Source: a virus (taxonomy: Duplodnaviria > Heunggongvirae > Uroviricota > Caudoviricetes). From it: a DNA stretch of 64,000 nucleotides. Every line of letters begins with the position of its first letter. The first letter of the stretch is position 1. The translations under genes and the position numbers were made by a program. This document shows positions 8,982-60,643 of the stretch, piece after piece. The notes beneath the pieces were generated by a model that saw nothing but the letters and a program-made list of their open reading frames with translations, was not told the DNA's origin and did not search any database. Location: IMG/VR virus record IMGVR_UViG_3300035210_000190. One strand, given 5' to 3'.

Positions 8982-9091
8982 TGGAATATTTTCGCACTAT
9001 TAAAAAGTTTTTAAAAAATATCATTTTTGCTATTTACTTGATGTGTTTTTTGTTGTATAATAAAAGTCTAATAAACAAAGGTATTTATATT

Positions 9092-9223
9092 ATGCAAGGT
9101 TCATTTGGTGACGCAACAGAACGTTTCCGTGGTGGCAAAAAACGTGACACAGAAAAAGCAAAAACTCATGAGCAAGACAAGAACTGGCGAAAGAAGCGTC
9201 GTGATCGTCACGTTAACGAATAA
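9092..9223 (+). CDS. 43-aa highly basic peptide (MQGSFGDA.ERFRGGKK...), copy 1 of 3; KGG-stress-protein-like motif
   Basis: three near-identical small ORFs (9092, 54776, 62268) each with own promoter and RBS. Confidence 0.6.
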   Translation: MQGSFGDATERFRGGKKRDTEKAKTHEQDKNWRKKRRDRHVNE

Positions 9224-9239
9224 CGAATTTTACAGTTTT

Positions 9240-9313
9240 GGCTGTTTGTAGTTCAGTCGGCAGAACTCCGTCGAAAAACGGTAGTCGTGGGTTCGAATCC
9301 CATCATACAGCCT
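9240..9313 (+). tRNA. tRNA-like gene with atypical anticodon arm (4-bp stem, 6-nt loop CGAAAA); identity undetermined
   Basis: acceptor stem, D-arm GTTC/GAAC, canonical T-arm GTGGGTTCGAATCCCAT; co-transcribed with basic peptide gene; terminator at 9320-9350. Confidence 0.5.
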
Positions 9314-9504
9314 TTATACACTAAGACCACTTTCGAGTGGTTTTTTTATTACTTTTTTACATTGTGTAATGATAATCATTTTCATTATTTATTGACTTTT
9401 TACATCACTGTGGTAAATTATTAATACTTTATATCATTATAATTAAAGCAACTAATGCAATCTAGATTGTGTTGTTAACAACTAAATATTAGGAGAATAC
9501 GATA

Positions 9505-11669: not shown

Positions 11670-13240
11670 ATTGTAAATAACCCCGACCTGAAGGACGGAG
11701 CTTTTGTTTTTCTAGAAGCCAAAATTAGTGTGTAAACACTCTAATCTTATTTTCTTGGGGCAGTTTACTATGCCTCTACTGGCTTCTTCGAAATATTGAT
11801 CTCTCCACATTTCAAAATCACCTTTACTTTTTAACCATTTTCTCAATATATTCCCTGCTCCATTCACATCTGCATTTAGCAACTTTCCTAATGAGGATTT
11901 GAACAATCCTCTTTTGGATCTTGTTCCTAAATAGCTCTTATGTTTTTTAACTTCTTCTAAATCTAAAAAGCTTGTTTTTGAAGTATATGATTCTTCATGT
12001 TTAGCAAAAAGCAAACCTTTACTTTTAGCTTTATATTCAAGCATGTTTTTAAATTTAAAAAATGGGACAGATACAAAACTTTGATTATTAACAGACCCAA
12101 TATTGATGGATTGTTTCTGTTCTTTATTTTCACCAACTAGTATGGTGTTGAGATTGTTTTTCAAACAATACTCCACAATATAATTAGTTGATCGATGATA
12201 ATAATCGTTGATTTTGTTGGTTCTATTACGAGATAGTTTGTTTTTCTTTTTAATCATAGCACTAACATCTTGGTTATTGTTTCGACCAAGATCTATTTTA
12301 CTTGATAATTTAGCGACTTTCTTATTATACCATTGGTTTAGGGATTTTAGATAACGCCCATCAAGGAGGATGGACGAACCATTGGTGGAATTAAGGCATG
12401 CACCTAAATTATTCAAGCCAAGGTCAATGGAAAGATAACGACCGTTATCTTCCATTGCCTTATCTTCTTCAACTTCATAGACTACTTCTACTTTAAATTC
12501 TTCTCCATTACTTTTAGGCAAGATACGCACTTCGTTTATCTTTTTTATATGTTTTGGAATTGAAATTTCAAGTTTAGTAAGTAAATGAGGATATTCTTTT
12601 TTAAAGTTCTTTGAACAATTAATAACAACTCTATTAACAGTATCTTTTTCTAGTTCTGTTTTATTTTTAACAAATCGAACACTACGCCCTTGAATAACGA
12701 TATTGGAATAGGTTGGTTTATCTTTTTTTCGATTCTTCTTGTATCGTGGTAAATTAATGGTGTTGGTTTTGTTTACTGACTTTTTAGCTTTCAAACTACC
12801 AAAGAAAGCCTTCATATCTGAGTAGGCCACTCTTCTTATTTGTTGAGAACAATCATTCAGTAACAATGAAAAGTTCTCATTAAGTTTAGTGGCATGATAG
12901 AGTTCAGTATCAGAAGGCATTTTTTCTTTGTTGAAGAAAGCTTGACGTAAAGGATATAAGCAAACATTATACATTTGAGAAGCATGGACAGAGAGCATTT
13001 GAACTAATTCTTTTTCTTCTGGGCTAAACGATTTACACCACATAGAAAGTGTGCGTAAATATTTAACTCTTTTTTTAGATTTATTAGCCATAACACTCCA
13101 AAAGCCAACTAATAAAATAGTTGACTAAAATATGGTTATTAGTATACAATATAAAACTTAAAAGTCAACTATAATGAGTTGGCAAAAAAACAACCCTATT
13201 CCTCCCCTGCCTGAAGGAAGAGGTATCCAAGGGTTTAACT
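11670..13240 (-). mobile_element. tnpB-only IS200/IS605-family element (IS1341-like) with similar imperfect hairpins at both ends in direct orientation; boundaries approximate
   Basis: TnpB ORF flanked by CCCCGACCTGAAGGACGGAGC (11681-11701) and CCTCCCCTGCCTGAAGGAAGAGG (13200-13222), plus 86-bp imperfect palindrome 13104-13190. Confidence 0.6.
11712..13091 (-). CDS. tnpB: TnpB (IS605 OrfB-family RuvC-like RNA-guided nuclease/transposase accessory protein)
   Basis: RuvC-I IDLGLNNLGA, RuvC-II ESYTSKTS, RuvC-III NADVNGAGNI motifs; 459 aa. Confidence 0.85.
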   Translation of the reverse strand: MANKSKKRVKYLRTLSMWCKSFSPEEKELVQMLSVHASQMYNVCLYPLRQAFFNKEKMPSDTELYHATKLNENFSLLLNDCSQQIRRVAYSDMKAFFGSLKAKKSVNKTNTINLPRYKKNRKKDKPTYSNIVIQGRSVRFVKNKTELEKDTVNRVVINCSKNFKKEYPHLLTKLEISIPKHIKKINEVRILPKSNGEEFKVEVVYEVEEDKAMEDNGRYLSIDLGLNNLGACLNSTNGSSILLDGRYLKSLNQWYNKKVAKLSSKIDLGRNNNQDVSAMIKKKNKLSRNRTNKINDYYHRSTNYIVEYCLKNNLNTILVGENKEQKQSINIGSVNNQSFVSVPFFKFKNMLEYKAKSKGLLFAKHEESYTSKTSFLDLEEVKKHKSYLGTRSKRGLFKSSLGKLLNADVNGAGNILRKWLKSKGDFEMWRDQYFEEASRGIVNCPKKIRLECLHTNFGF

Positions 13241-33832: not shown

Positions 33833-34954
33833 ATGTCCAGCATCTTCCCCCGTATTGAAACCCTTGATGATATGATTCCTCATATCAAAGACCGTGCCTA
33901 TATTTCTCTTAACAAACAGGATAACGGTGCCGACATCGTTTGCTACAACATCAGCAACGGTGACTCTTTCAACACTCCGGTTGAAAAGGAAGCTCGCGGT
34001 ATTACCTTTGACGACAACGGTAAAATACTGTCGCGTCCATTGCACAAATTCTTCAACTTGGCAGAGCGTGCAGAAGTCCAGCCAGCCGTTTTGGATTGGA
34101 ACACTATGGTTGCCGGGTTTGATAAAATGGATGGCTCCATGATTACCACAGGGCTGTTCAAAGGCGAATTCTTTGCTAAGTCCAAGAAGTCTTTCAAATC
34201 GGATGTGGCTGTTTCGGCAGAAGGCTTTGTGTCTCGTAACCAGAAATACTACGAGTTCACCAAATATTGCTCTCAGGCCCAACTGACGCCAATTTTTGAA
34301 TTCACTTCGCCAAAGCATCGTATCGTTTTGCGTTATGACGAAGACAACATGACATTGCTTCATGTTCGTCACAACATCACAGGCGATTACTTAATGCCTG
34401 CTGAAAAAGACCAACTGGCGTTGTTGTTTGATATTCCTGTTAACAAGCCACTGTTTGGTGAAGAATTTGATTTGGCTTCCCTGTTGAAGTCGCTGAACAC
34501 GGTTGAAGGGATTGAAGGCTATGTTATTCAATTCGTTAACGGTAACATGATCAAAATCAAAACCAAATGGTATATGAATCTCCATCATGCGGTTAGCTTT
34601 GTTCGTGAACGTGATATTGCTCGTTTGGTGGTCGAAGAAAAACTTGATGATTACATTGCTTATTTGTCGCTAAACTCGCCAACGGCTGATTTGAGTGAAA
34701 TTTATCGTATCAATGACGCTATCAAAGCTTCGATTGAAGCGTTGTCGAAAGAGGTTGATGATATTGCTGCTGCATTCCAAGGTGTTGACGTGAAAACTGC
34801 AGCAATCCAACTCAAAGGCCACAAACACTTTGGTTTTGTTATGGGGGCAATTCGTGGTCACAAAAACGACTACCTGTATCACTACTCTAAAAACCATCTG
34901 GTGGATTGGTCGTTGGACCAAATTGAGCTTGGCGACTTGTCCGCTCCCGTTTAA
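33833..34954 (+). CDS. RNA ligase, Rnl1 family (divergent paralog A)
   Basis: KFFNL, nucleotidyl-lysine motif DKMDGSM, EGYVIQFVNGNMIKIKTKWYMNLH matching T4 Rnl1 motifs. Confidence 0.8.
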   Translation: MSSIFPRIETLDDMIPHIKDRAYISLNKQDNGADIVCYNISNGDSFNTPVEKEARGITFDDNGKILSRPLHKFFNLAERAEVQPAVLDWNTMVAGFDKMDGSMITTGLFKGEFFAKSKKSFKSDVAVSAEGFVSRNQKYYEFTKYCSQAQLTPIFEFTSPKHRIVLRYDEDNMTLLHVRHNITGDYLMPAEKDQLALLFDIPVNKPLFGEEFDLASLLKSLNTVEGIEGYVIQFVNGNMIKIKTKWYMNLHHAVSFVRERDIARLVVEEKLDDYIAYLSLNSPTADLSEIYRINDAIKASIEALSKEVDDIAAAFQGVDVKTAAIQLKGHKHFGFVMGAIRGHKNDYLYHYSKNHLVDWSLDQIELGDLSAPV

Positions 34955-35912: not shown

Positions 35913-37046
35913 ATGGAGATTCACATGACTTATCAACAAGAACTGTATGCCCAACTGATGAACCTGTTGGTTACTAATCCGGGGTCTTTTAAATACCGTG
36001 ATGAAATCTCGGCGGTAGACGGTGGGACTTACCGTGTCTTCAACTATGACATTCCAAAGCACTCCGAATTCAAACTTCCGGGTGCCAAGGATTGCCGTGG
36101 AGTCATGTTCTACATGGGCGGTTCTGAGCCAATGCTGGTGGCATTGCCAATGCAGAAATTCTTTTCCTTGGGCGAAACCCCTGAAACGCAAAAGGTGAAG
36201 CCAGAAGAAGCCGACCACGCTTATCTGAAACCCGATGGCTCGTTGCTCACCAGCTATATTTCTCCGATCAATAATACTCTTTACTACAAGAGTAAAAAGA
36301 AGCCTACGTTTGCTGATTACGGCCTTGTTGAACAGTCTATCAGTCCAGAATTGCACGCAGACGTTGAACGGCTGACCCGCACAGGTGTTTCGGTTGACTT
36401 GGAACTGACCACGCCGAAAAACCGTGTTTTCATCGAATACACTACCTACGAAGTTCATGTGTTGAAAGCCCGCGACATGAACACAGGGGCTTATGTGGAC
36501 ATTCGTTCGGCAGAATTTGCCGCAGAATATCCGGTTATTGCGGCCCATTTGGTGAAACGTATCCCTATCAATGAACTCAACGTTAATGACCCTGAAATTG
36601 AGGGTTATGTGGTTGAATTTGGCCCTGACATGTATAAGGTCAAGACCATTCCTTACCTGAAAATGTCGGCAGTGGTTAACATTCAGGATCGTTCGAAGGA
36701 ACGTCAGGTTATTTATGAAGCAACTCTTCATGAAATTCTGGATGAAATTCGTTCGCTGTATCATTACCGGACACACAGCGACAACTTCCCACTGGCTGAA
36801 ATTCTGGCTCGCTTGGATGAAGTCGAAGACTACGCCCGTAAAAGCTACCATTACCTTGTTCGCACGGTTGATAGCTTCCACGATGAGCATAAAGGTTTGG
36901 AACGTGGCGATTACGCTCGTAAAGCCAAAGAAGTGGCTCCATTGCTTCTGTCGGTGTTGATGAGCAAGTTTTCGGGTGACGAGATTGATTACAAACAAGC
37001 CGCTATCATGGTGTTTGCTCGTAAACAAGTGCCTATCCCCGAGTAA
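35913..37046 (+). CDS. rnlA: RNA ligase 1 (T4 Rnl1-like; likely start 35925)
   Basis: TYRVFNY, DCRGVMFYM, QKFFSL, LKPDGSLL (lysine motif I), EGYVVEF...YKVKT match T4 Rnl1. Confidence 0.85.
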   Translation: MEIHMTYQQELYAQLMNLLVTNPGSFKYRDEISAVDGGTYRVFNYDIPKHSEFKLPGAKDCRGVMFYMGGSEPMLVALPMQKFFSLGETPETQKVKPEEADHAYLKPDGSLLTSYISPINNTLYYKSKKKPTFADYGLVEQSISPELHADVERLTRTGVSVDLELTTPKNRVFIEYTTYEVHVLKARDMNTGAYVDIRSAEFAAEYPVIAAHLVKRIPINELNVNDPEIEGYVVEFGPDMYKVKTIPYLKMSAVVNIQDRSKERQVIYEATLHEILDEIRSLYHYRTHSDNFPLAEILARLDEVEDYARKSYHYLVRTVDSFHDEHKGLERGDYARKAKEVAPLLLSVLMSKFSGDEIDYKQAAIMVFARKQVPIPE

Positions 37047-51545: not shown

Positions 51546-51862
51546 ACTAAAAGGCCACATATGTGGCTTTTTTATACTTATTAGTTTTTCATAGACGAAA
51601 AAAAAGAGGCATTTAGCCTCTCCCAAAAAGAAGATTGGACTCCTTTTATGCGGTGCGGTTTTCCATCATACATCACCAGCGTATGACGAGCTACCATGTC
51701 GGCAGAGCCTCTGAATGGTCATCGGATGCTAAACATCAACCCTGAAAGATGAGTTTTTTCTCATCCCGCATCTCCAAATTAATAGTATCAAAATGGTCAG
51801 TAAAATGCAACTCTTTTATCATCACAACAACTATTTTTTTTTGAAAACACTTGATGATTTTG

Positions 51863-51891
51863 TTGACAGTTATGCCTGTTTTCTATATAAT
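51863..51891 (+). promoter_or_regulatory. consensus sigma70 promoter TTGACA-17-TATAAT driving tRNA-like gene
   Basis: perfect -35 and -10 hexamers with 17-nt spacer. Confidence 0.7.
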
Positions 51892-51938
51892 AAGCACATC
51901 AAGACTAAACAACTAAATCTTGATACAATGTAATATAT

Positions 51939-52010
51939 GGGCCGGTGGTGTTTAACGGGAACAAGTGTCCTTAACCGGATGAGTTCTGGGTTCGAGTCCC
52001 AGTCGGTCCT
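51939..52010 (+). tRNA. tRNA-like gene, atypical anticodon arm (5-bp stem with two G-U pairs, 6-nt loop UUAACC); monocistronic with own promoter and terminator
   Basis: acceptor stem GGGCCGG/TCGGTCC, D-arm TGTT/AACA, canonical T-arm CTGGGTTCGAGTCCCAG; terminator 52029-52053. Confidence 0.5.
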
Positions 52011-52149
52011 CCTAATTTAAAATACAGATAAACCGCCTTCTTGGCGGTTTTTTGTTTTAACACTTTTGAATAATAATCATTTTTCACTACCAGTATTATA
52101 GACAACAAAAAGCCCGCTTCTGCGGGCCTTTTATATTACTGTTGGAAAA

Positions 52150-54775: not shown

Positions 54776-54910
54776 ATGCAAGGTTCTTTCGGTGACGCAG
54801 TAGAACGTTTTCGTGGCGGCAAGAAAAAAGACAATGAAAAGGCAAAATTTCACAAAAAAGATAACGAATTTCGGAATCGCCGCCGCAATCGTCATCAAGA
54901 CGCAGAGTAA
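54776..54910 (+). CDS. 44-aa basic peptide, copy 2 of 3
   Basis: MQGSFGDAVERFRGGKKKDNEKAKFHKKDNEFRNRRRNRHQDAE; leader hairpin upstream. Confidence 0.6.
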   Translation: MQGSFGDAVERFRGGKKKDNEKAKFHKKDNEFRNRRRNRHQDAE

Positions 54911-58982: not shown

Positions 58983-59247
58983 AATTAAACGTTGCACAAT
59001 GTTCTTGAATGGCTTAAAATAGCCTAACTTTAATCAGATGAGGATTAACAGAGATTTTCGTAGGTTGGCATCCTGCGGATTCAGGCAGAACCTAAGACCT
59101 TTGGTAAACCAATAAATCCAAAGTAGGGGCTTCGATAAAGAGATTAGAAGTCGCTTGAAATAGATTGCTAGGTATTTATATTTTAAAATAGAGAATATAT
59201 AATTGAGGATACTGGGTGGTTTAGACGGGTTCTAAGCCACCAACCAC

Positions 59248-60071: not shown

Positions 60072-60172
60072 TCTGTTTTTTGTTGTTATTAAGCCGCCAT
60101 TTTGGCGGTTTTTTATTGCCCATCCTTTTGTTTTTTGATATAATAGGTCATCAATCAAATGACAGGTTTATC

Positions 60173-60643
60173 ATGATTTCTATCGAACTTTATCCTAATC
60201 CAGCCGAAAACCCAGAAATTGTAAAACTGGTGTTTCAATGCATGCGGAATAAATACACTGCAGATTCAGACCCTGCTGGATTGACCTTTAAAGAAGTTCG
60301 GTCGATTATCACCACTCACCCTGTTACTGTCATCAAAGACGGTGATAGAATTGTTGGGGTTGTTAATGTCAATGAAGTTCACTTTTCGCTTAGAAAAAGA
60401 TTGGGTTTAGAGCATGAATATTTCAATCTTGGCATGATTTATATTGCGAAAAAAGAACGTGGTAATGGCTATGCCAGTCAGGTGGTTGAACATTTCCTTA
60501 AAATTCACAAAAACCTTATTTACATTGTTCATGAAAGTAATAAGGCCAGCAATAAAATTGCCGTAAAATATTTCAAGTTCTTTAAACAGCAAGGCTCTTT
60601 CAGAGCGACTGAACCCTATAATGTTTACAAGATAGAACAATAA
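60173..60643 (+). CDS. GNAT-family N-acetyltransferase
   Basis: motif A RGNGYASQ in IYIAKKERGNGYASQVVEHF. Confidence 0.5.
   Translation: MISIELYPNPAENPEIVKLVFQCMRNKYTADSDPAGLTFKEVRSIITTHPVTVIKDGDRIVGVVNVNEVHFSLRKRLGLEHEYFNLGMIYIAKKERGNGYASQVVEHFLKIHKNLIYIVHESNKASNKIAVKYFKFFKQQGSFRATEPYNVYKIEQ

Follow-up and report, generated by a model that had tools for sequence, protein, structure and literature searches.

Two conserved phage RNAs with a tRNA-like body and a six-nucleotide anticodon-arm loop: probable non-decoding derivatives of tRNA-Ala and tRNA-His

The 64,000-nucleotide (nt) stretch of DNA analysed here, referred to throughout as the window, derives from the Caudoviricetes virus record IMGVR_UViG_3300035210_000190 and encodes two RNAs, T1 (51939..52012, plus strand) and T2 (9240..9313, plus strand), that resemble transfer RNAs (tRNAs) and carry, in place of a canonical anticodon arm, a short hairpin closing a 6-nt loop. 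We are confident that T1 and T2 are real, conserved, non-decoding derivatives of tRNA-Ala and tRNA-His, respectively. On balance we also lean towards the fuller statement that they are selected, stable tRNA mimics, descended from genes of the tRNA-Ala and tRNA-His types, that compete for a host factor.

Two tRNA-like RNAs with hexaloop anticodon arms

T1 consists of a 72-nt cloverleaf followed by CC, and the tRNA-like cloverleaf that an earlier note had proposed here from the letters alone is recovered by ARAGORN, by the Rfam tRNA model (RF00005), and by RNAalifold, which gives the cloverleaf for the T1 variants. The Rfam model aligns T1 end to end at 24.8 bits, under the gathering score of 29, and places four loop residues where the model has five; a weak match to mascRNA was also returned in this search. 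The acceptor strands GGGCCGG and UCGGUCC include a G3:U70 pair and are followed by U73 and CC, without A76, and the T arm is CUGGG-UUCGAGU-CCCAG. The D arm is non-canonical, with 5 base pairs (bp) and a 5-nt loop, a form favoured by RNAalifold. The minimum-free-energy fold of T1 differs from the cloverleaf, which lies only 2.7 kcal/mol above it, and a hairpin with the stem UGUCC/GGAUG and the loop UUAACC is present in both. This anticodon-arm analogue (51966..51981, plus strand; loop at 51971-51976) is the 5-bp stem and hexaloop described earlier, and two approaches agree on it: ARAGORN reports T1 as tRNA-??? with a 2-nt anticodon 'aa', equivalent to a 6-nt loop, and in the thermodynamic ensemble the four inner pairs have probabilities of 0.91-0.95 and the outer U.G pair 0.66.

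T2 is recognised as tRNA-like by ARAGORN and by Rfam, and alignment to Escherichia coli tRNA-His shows it to be tRNA-His-like. It scores 44.2 bits against RF00005, above the gathering threshold of 29, with three residues deleted in the anticodon arm, and ARAGORN again reports tRNA-??? with 'aa'. Its D and T arms are canonical, the acceptor stem is CUGUUUG/CAUACAG, and G-2 and G-1 pair with C74 and C73. The anticodon-arm analogue (9268..9281, plus strand) has the stem CCGU/ACGG, 4 bp plus a U.U or G.U, closing the hexaloop CGAAAA (9272-9277), so that the second gene with a 4-bp stem and this loop was also correctly described.

Hairpin enumeration over the T1 anticodon region gave loops of 6 nt or 8 nt only, and in neither T1 nor T2 is there a 7-nt register with at least four base pairs. 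The standard 7-nt loop in an alternative register, named in the earlier note as one finding that would undo its reading, is therefore absent from both, and a canonical tRNA folded in another register is ruled out. All pairs of the two hexaloop hairpins have probabilities of 0.86-0.95, except for the outer U.G of T1, and no register of either loop places U at 33 and a purine at 37. A route through RloC, in which excision of the wobble nucleotide and religation leave a 6-nt loop, is likewise a misfit, as the loops lack U33 and purine 37 in the corresponding register.

Loops of 6 nt could also arise from an error in sequencing or assembly, for instance a miscalled homopolymer, and the run of A residues in the T2 loop speaks for it. 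The T1 loop, however, contains no homopolymer, and not one base of the 191-nt T1 cassette differs among three independent assemblies, two made from JGI samples and one from an SRA run. Ten related loci, from JGI as well as Logan data, carry T2, and diverged lineages show no change in loop length. The error explanation, to which we give a negligible probability, is refuted, and the earlier argument against it stands on firmer ground, with identical independent assemblies and with hexaloops retained in diverged relatives.

The two hexaloops could also base-pair with neighbouring stretches of GGUUCGA, the universal T-arm motif, AACC of T1 (51973-51976) with GGUU and UCGAA of T2 (9271-9275) with UUCGA. 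This was noticed post hoc and is probably a matter of chance.

Acceptor ends of the Ala and His types

A pattern composed of the T1 acceptor strands and T loop, with the anticodon arm left free, was verified locally and run on a metagenome collection. The matches listed are cellular tRNA-Ala genes, with no further phage relatives among them, and ARAGORN typed 107 of the 120 listed as tRNA-Ala. The T1 acceptor stem, including the G3:U70 pair that is present in all three T1 variants, is therefore of the tRNA-Ala type. The remainder of the tRNA-Ala identity set, A73 and an NGC anticodon, is absent from T1, in which the loop is UUAACC.

In T2, the base ahead of the first acceptor pair is G (G9241) and the discriminator is C, and these form the G-1:C73 pair, which is found only in tRNA-His. 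The GG at positions -2 and -1, pairing with C73 and C74, is kept in all lineages while the sequence just upstream diverges. The sole E. coli match of T2 is tRNA-His, identical at 22 of 23 positions over the variable loop and T arm, a match that is not significant alone (E-value 7 in a 28-Gb database). In the full alignment the two share the lengths of the D arm and variable loop, an identical T arm and C73, and the T2 anticodon arm is 3 nt shorter; the GUG anticodon of the tRNA-His identity set is absent, its place being taken by CGAAAA.

CCA is not encoded by either gene, T1 ending in U73-CC-U and T2 in C73-C-UU, unlike the canonical tRNA-Leu and tRNA-Met of the phage, which encode it. Alanyl-tRNA synthetase (AlaRS) and histidyl-tRNA synthetase (HisRS) are the classical microhelix-charging enzymes and have little need of the anticodon; Hou and Schimmel in 1988, and Francklyn and Schimmel in 1989 and 1990, are said to have reported that they charge acceptor microhelices via G3:U70 and G-1:C73, respectively.

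The 3' half of T1 (51971-52021) is also 88% identical over 51 nt to the tRNA-Lys(UUU) of T5-like phages (L136, Salmonella phage BD13). The shared TTAACCGG corresponds in tRNA-Lys to U35-A38 together with the 3' stem strand, and in T1 is displaced by 2 nt into the loop. This likeness could reflect a chimeric origin or a chance resemblance of tRNA arms.

Conservation and distribution in related phages

Relatives were reached through homologues of a flanking 257-amino acid (aa) protein, which are 96, 86, 73, and 45% identical to it and lie on syntenic contigs; the resulting variant set comprises three T1 variants and three distinct T2 variants only. T1 forms an accessory cassette of approximately 270 bp, with which three lineages are found and four without. 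It is present in the window lineage, in L009 (the 73% lineage), and in L147, which comes from a different project and was reached via another protein; it is cleanly missing from L007 (the 96% lineage) and from L010 and L012 (the 45% lineage), and in L008 it is gone together with a larger deletion. The cassette is an indel that is either wholly present or wholly absent, which fits an accessory add-on gene.

The three T1 variants differ at 10 of 74 positions. G7:U66 is replaced by A-U, two D-arm changes preserve pairing in the D arm with 5 bp and a 5-nt loop, and pair 27:43 is U.G, C-G, or C.A in the three lineages, with the 14 nt GUCC-UUAACC-GGAU invariant throughout. Over the three variants, 97% of the cells in the cloverleaf pair, compared with 35-55% for slid-partner controls. 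Between the window and L009, identity is 92% in the promoter and leader, 86% in T1, and 91% in the trailer, compared with 78-79% in the immediate flanks and 77% in the neighbouring gene.

T2 is a core element, present in every lineage for which the region was recovered, including a T1-less contig (L139, which is L007). It is 94-100% identical across ten related loci, compared with 75-89% for the 220 nt upstream and 200 nt downstream in the diverged lineages, a degree of conservation comparable to that of the genuine tRNA-Met of the phage (96-99%). The sites of substitution are the D, variable, and T loops and position 27, and the anticodon arm is invariant in all lineages apart from that flanking position, at which a U27 to G change in L135 converts U.U into G.U to give a fifth stem pair.

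Pattern scans of IMG/VR returned a single unrelated GC-rich match for one T1 pattern and none for further T1 and T2 patterns, an IMG/VR scan with the neighbouring 257-aa protein gave no match, and a genome collection yielded neither a T2 match nor a relative of the small basic protein encoded upstream of T2. Covariance models R1 and R2 found no extra copies in 20 related loci, with none for R2 in three IMG/VR loci, and a window-wide Rfam search at a permissive threshold gave no additional tRNA-like matches.

Predicted transcription units of T1 and T2

T1 is preceded by a promoter with the structure TTGACA-17 nt-TATAAT (51863..51891, plus strand), which matches the sigma-70 consensus at 12 of 12 positions and is the sole perfect match in the window, where shuffled sequences lead us to expect 0.06. 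Both hexamers are unaltered in L009 and L147. A 5' leader of approximately 41 nt (51898..51938, plus strand) contains a 7-bp hairpin (ATCAAGA at 51898-51904 and TCTTGAT at 51918-51924) whose stem is unaltered in the same two lineages, with substitutions confined to the loop. Downstream is an intrinsic terminator (52030..52056, plus strand), AAACCGCC-TTCTT-GGCGGTTT, with a stem at 52030-52050 followed by a T run, which is also conserved in L009 and L147. There is no neighbouring open reading frame (ORF) in the T1 transcript. The perfect promoter, the strong terminator, and the monocistronic arrangement of the 72-nt unit that were previously claimed are all in evidence.

T2, in contrast to T1, lies behind a gene, and is predicted to be co-transcribed with it, from a promoter with the structure TTTACT-17-TATAAT (9033..9061, plus strand; 10 of 12 positions) to a terminator at 9323..9344 (plus strand), both of which are conserved in relatives. 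The gene (9092..9223, plus strand) encodes a small basic protein of 43 aa (MQGSFGDATERFRGGKK...RKKRRDRH), and T2 starts 16-18 nt past its stop codon, with the terminator after. The length and motifs of the protein are conserved in relatives despite many nucleotide changes. A second paralog is encoded at 54777-54910 (plus strand) with no tRNA-like gene behind it; the paralogs are 43-44 aa long and strongly basic, with the form MQGSFGDAxERFRGGKK...RKKRRNRH. The family is widespread in this phage group, with 32 clusters in a set of 5.8 billion proteins, and has no Pfam or PHROG match. It is present in IMG/VR relatives without T2, and as far as can be told the link between T2 and the 43-aa protein is only transcriptional.

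Proposed mimicry of the tRNA body

The interpretation that we favour is that T1 and T2 act through the parts of a tRNA that they retain. The consensus sigma-70 promoters suggest early transcription by the host RNA polymerase, which is probably how both RNAs would be made, T1 from its own perfect promoter and T2 from behind the small basic-protein gene. They are predicted to fold into the L-shape with the T arm and acceptor helix intact, and would presumably be trimmed at the 5' end by RNase P and at the 3' end by exonucleases and the CCA-adding enzyme. As the acceptor marks for AlaRS (G3:U70) and HisRS (G-1:C73) are kept, T1 and T2 are plausibly bound, and perhaps charged, by these enzymes. 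With the anticodon arm cut to a stem of 4-5 bp and a 6-nt loop, decoding would be lost, and so would the sites used by anticodon nucleases and by enzymes modifying the anticodon loop. Abundant look-alikes of this kind, themselves outside translation, could then act as competitors for a host protein whose recognition site is the tRNA body or acceptor end, the candidate targets being a tRNA-directed immune nuclease or toxin, a synthetase, or a processing enzyme. Expression, processing, charging, and competitor function are all inferred, and for the role as competitor or sponge taken on its own our support is tentative.

One further feature was counted in favour of this reading. Approximately 50 window proteins were scanned against Pfam and PHROGs, and among them are two paralogous RNA ligases of the T4 Rnl1 type (33833-34954 and 35913-37046, both plus strand), encoded 1 kb apart, the closest ligase match being in Ralstonia phage RsoM2USA (344 kb) at 41% identity. 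No polynucleotide kinase/phosphatase was recognised among the scanned proteins. Carriage of two such ligases implies that tRNA damage is part of the biology of this phage.

The general idea of a tRNA mimic put forward in the earlier note thus survives, in that the two genes encode conserved hexaloop mimics and are neither errors nor canonical tRNAs in another register. The bait idea, as applied to anticodon nucleases, is not supported in the form stated, since the anticodon loop has been replaced while the acceptor stem and elbow are kept. For PrrC, RloC, and colicins E5 and D the recognition site is the anticodon loop, and a bait for such nucleases is unlikely because it is in this loop that T1 and T2 have lost all likeness to a tRNA. 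Replacement ('rescue') tRNAs have to decode, which excludes that role for T1 and T2. Besides a decoy or sponge for a factor reading the tRNA body or acceptor end, a regulatory mimic would be a conceivable role.

Several observations weigh against mimicry by competition. Among the matches listed for the acceptor pattern, 119 of 120 have A73 where T1 has U73, and in the absence of an encoded CCA charging would depend on host repair enzymes; the identity marks may be no more than a legacy of the ancestral tRNAs. In L009, T1 has one T-stem pair and one anticodon-stem pair broken, and ARAGORN makes no call. Comparison of orthologous loci for covariation, as proposed earlier, bore out the conservation of the fold and hexaloops as RNA and gave no covariation: across the three T1 and three T2 variants there is a compensatory double change at no pair, so that the structure rests on conservation and tRNA homology. 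Judged by sequence identity, the T1 body is no better conserved than the rest of the cassette, and since the distribution of the cassette is patchy, its higher identity relative to the flanks may be due to recent transfer and not to selection. The study of P2-OLD states explicitly that competitive inhibition was not observed (PMC12445682), and no precedent for a tRNA decoy in phage defence was found in the literature.

Alternative explanations

Four other accounts have to be set against competition by non-decoding mimics. One, which we consider unlikely, is that T1 and T2 are cis-acting elements whose tRNA shape recruits RNase P or 3' exonucleases and so defines or protects adjacent RNA ends, those of the 43-aa protein mRNA for T2 and of the leader hairpin or trailer for T1, in the manner of tRNA-linked operons, mascRNA/MALAT1, or viral 3' tRNA-like structures. 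T2 does always lie directly after the small ORF and is predicted to be co-transcribed with it, the T1 leader and trailer are conserved at least as well as the T1 body, and reduction of the anticodon arm would be explained by the established irrelevance of that arm to RNase P. However, a pure processing signal would leave the hexaloop arms unconstrained, and they are invariant; the paralog at 54777-54910 has no tRNA-like element, as is the case for the IMG/VR relatives, the T1 transcript offers no adjacent ORF to be protected, and the synthetase identity marks are kept. Those same marks, being acceptor-based (G3:U70 and G-1:C73), are what an aminoacyl carrier would require, and it is conceivable, albeit quite improbable, that T1 and T2 are charged with Ala and His, respectively, for a non-ribosomal reaction, the crippled arm keeping them off the ribosome while a transferase accepts them. 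Enzymes of the Fem/MurM type, aminoacyl-phosphatidylglycerol synthases, cyclodipeptide synthases, or a GNAT-fold enzyme would be examples, the staphylococcal non-proteinogenic tRNA-Gly is a precedent, the encoded 3' CC could be completed by a CCA-adding enzyme, and a GNAT gene (60080-60643) lies beside the tRNA cluster. Yet the GNAT match is generic, and no aminoacyl-tRNA-dependent transferase was recognised among the scanned window proteins; moreover, CCA is not encoded, T1 has U73, and T1 is dispensable in close relatives.

Decay offers a simpler account, in which T1 and T2 are functionless pseudogenes of tRNA-Ala and tRNA-His that have lost at least one nucleotide in the anticodon arm. The sub-threshold Rfam score of T1, the stem mismatches accumulating in L009, and the lack of T1 in several lineages are in keeping with this, and pseudo-tRNAs are common in phage genome papers. 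Against it, T2 is as conserved as a real tRNA amid flanks that are 11-25% diverged, and is present in every lineage; in three lineages, each from a different project, T1 retains its perfect promoter and terminator and an unchanged hexaloop, and the T2 arm differs from that of tRNA-His by 3 nt and a wholly different loop rather than by a single slip. We hold out little prospect for the pseudogene explanation. Very unlikely indeed is that T1 and T2 are working decoders with an odd loop, either of 6 nt or of 8 nt through breathing, that read doublets or quadruplets, promote frameshifting, or are repaired or edited to 7 nt. Loops of 8 nt can be drawn on paper (CUUAACCG for T1 and UCGAAAAA for T2), and 8-nt loops do decode in yeast mitochondria. 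The closing pairs that would have to open, however, have probabilities of 0.86-0.95, the U33/purine-37 layout is missing whatever the register, CCA is not encoded, unlike in the real tRNAs of the phage, and our literature search yielded no account of decoding by a 6-nt loop.

Relation to known tRNA-like RNAs

T1 and T2 share with canonical tRNA-Ala and tRNA-His (RF00005) the cloverleaf outline, the 7-bp acceptor stem, and the GGUUCGA T arm; T1 is like tRNA-Ala in its G3:U70 pair, and T2 like tRNA-His in G-1:C73, the D arm, the length of the variable loop, and the T arm. The elbow features (T arm GGUUCRA and GG in the D loop) are present in both, with a D arm that is canonical in T2 and atypical in T1. 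They depart from canonical tRNAs in having a loop of 6 nt rather than 7, in lacking an anticodon for Ala or His, and in not encoding CCA. The T2 arm falls short by 3 nt, and T1 is further set apart by U73, its unusual D arm, and its sub-threshold Rfam score. The canonical 5-bp stem with a 7-nt loop containing U33 and purine 37 is found in neither.

The tRNA-like domain of transfer-messenger RNA (tmRNA) is charged by AlaRS and has an Ala-type acceptor with G3:U70, a T arm, and no decoding anticodon. Unlike tmRNA, T1 is only 72 nt long, lacks the mRNA-like tag region, and still has a short hairpin in place of the anticodon arm, and ARAGORN called no tmRNA in the window. Other tRNA mimics or pseudo-tRNAs include tRNA-Other of Bacillus cereus, the staphylococcal non-proteinogenic tRNA-Gly, mascRNA, the 3' tRNA-like structures of plant viruses, of which that of tobacco mosaic virus accepts His, and the stable RNAs C and D of T4. 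None of these is known to combine a complete cloverleaf, a hexaloop, kept acceptor identity, and a phage gene with its own promoter. Pseudo-ToxI of phage PhiTE is reportedly a phage small RNA that imitates a host RNA to neutralise a protein; T1 and T2 differ from it in RNA class and in target. A bacterial example of such mimics is YrlA (PMC4201824). T1 and T2 resemble the named tRNA mimics in that the acceptor and elbow are kept for recognition by tRNA enzymes, and the roles of those RNAs are non-decoding, although there is no sequence homology between them. A viral 3' tRNA-like structure sits uncleaved at the 3' end of a coding RNA, and T2 follows a small ORF and is itself followed by a terminator.

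The closest phage-borne comparison is with rescue tRNAs, such as the T5 tRNA-Lys acting against PARIS, tRNA-Tyr against Retron-Eco7, and tRNA-Thr against P2-OLD (PMC11464382, PMC11555353, PMC12445682, PMC10264068). Known counter-defence by phage tRNAs relies on functional, cleavage-resistant replacements that decode the codon of the depleted host tRNA (PMC12445682). T1 and T2 are likewise phage-borne and tRNA-shaped, and both kinds occur in accessory regions and have altered anticodon arms; unlike rescue tRNAs, T1 and T2 have no 3-nt anticodon in a 7-nt loop and cannot decode. By their defining features, T1 and T2 are not canonical tRNAs, tmRNAs, or rescue tRNAs, and as no paper was found on 6-nt-loop tRNA mimics or tRNA decoys in phages, we class them as a variant among the tRNA-like non-decoding RNAs. 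The literature search likewise returned no paper on 6-nt anticodon loops as such, on decoding by them, or on phage tRNA decoys.

Phage tRNA genes are currently explained either by codon supply or by replacement of tRNAs destroyed by immune nucleases, and neither explanation is applicable to T1 and T2 because they cannot decode. A conserved look-alike with a strong promoter, in which only the acceptor and elbow are preserved, suggests that phages put the tRNA shape to a third use. It is possible, if rather doubtful, that T1 and T2 represent an undescribed class of phage small RNA, consisting of full look-alikes with the anticodon arm shortened to a hexaloop and the AlaRS and HisRS marks kept, which are charged or bound and never decode, and which serve as sponges or antidotes against a tRNA-directed immune effector or as aminoacyl donors. 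If they are charged, or bound to a defence protein, they would provide a reagent that is both simple and portable, and an anti-defence element of a new type; a role as sponges would make them the first answer to tRNA-targeting immunity by an RNA mimic rather than a replacement. They would also illustrate that 'pseudo-tRNA' and 'tRNA-???' annotations in phages can mark functional genes.

Genomic context and neighbouring elements

The window had no nucleotide match by megablast in 50,697 deposited phage genomes, and a more distant search returned generic tRNA arm similarity only, namely the T5-like tRNA-Lys 3' half for T1 and weak matches to assorted phage tRNAs for T2. Exact protein matches assign the window to JGI metagenome contigs (Ga0370509 and related samples) and to an SRA assembly; the source samples include JGI 3300034159 and SRR10968280. 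In gene content it corresponds to a large T4-like or jumbo phage, and it consists mostly of ORFans, each with its own promoter and terminator. Besides the two Rnl1 ligases, the Pfam and PHROG scan yielded only a DEDD exonuclease, NUDIX, HNH, GNAT, SPFH, and TnpB proteins, and no CCA-adding enzyme, synthetase, or aminoacyl-tRNA transferase was recognised among the proteins scanned. The generic GNAT match (60080-60643) adjoins the tRNA cluster.

Immediately beside the T1 cassette, on the minus strand, there is a candidate structured small RNA of approximately 175 nt (51600-51775), with a promoter at about 51810-51782 and a terminator at 51624-51602. Approximately 85 nt of its 5' part are invariant even in the lineage in which the neighbour protein is 45% identical, and RNAalifold gives 52 pairs, three of them with compensatory changes; it matches no Rfam family. 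A second conserved non-coding segment is the 265-nt spacer between tRNA-Leu(UAA) and tRNA-Met(CAU) (58983-59247, plus strand), of which approximately 200 nt are very highly conserved in L007, L008, and L147. The spacer is missing in L010, where tRNA-Arg, tRNA-Leu, and tRNA-Met abut. No Rfam family matches it, and the four sequences compared show no compensatory change; it may form a stable structured RNA made in the same transcript as the tRNAs.

The IMG/VR relatives are 64-193 kb in length. Syntenic relatives of the region also occur on contigs of 1.84-1.92 Mb, in three clusters (P0130, P0132, and P0136) from JGI and ENA data, among them the 1.85-Mb contig Ga0308423_1259934 (L147), and on further contigs of 254 kb and 498 kb. 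The 1.84-1.92 Mb contigs represent chimeric assemblies, integration into a cellular genome, or a phage genome of exceptional size. Elsewhere in the window, a TnpB gene (IS605 OrfB / Cas12f-like; 11712-13091, minus strand) forms an insertion at a position that is empty in the relatives L133 and L134.

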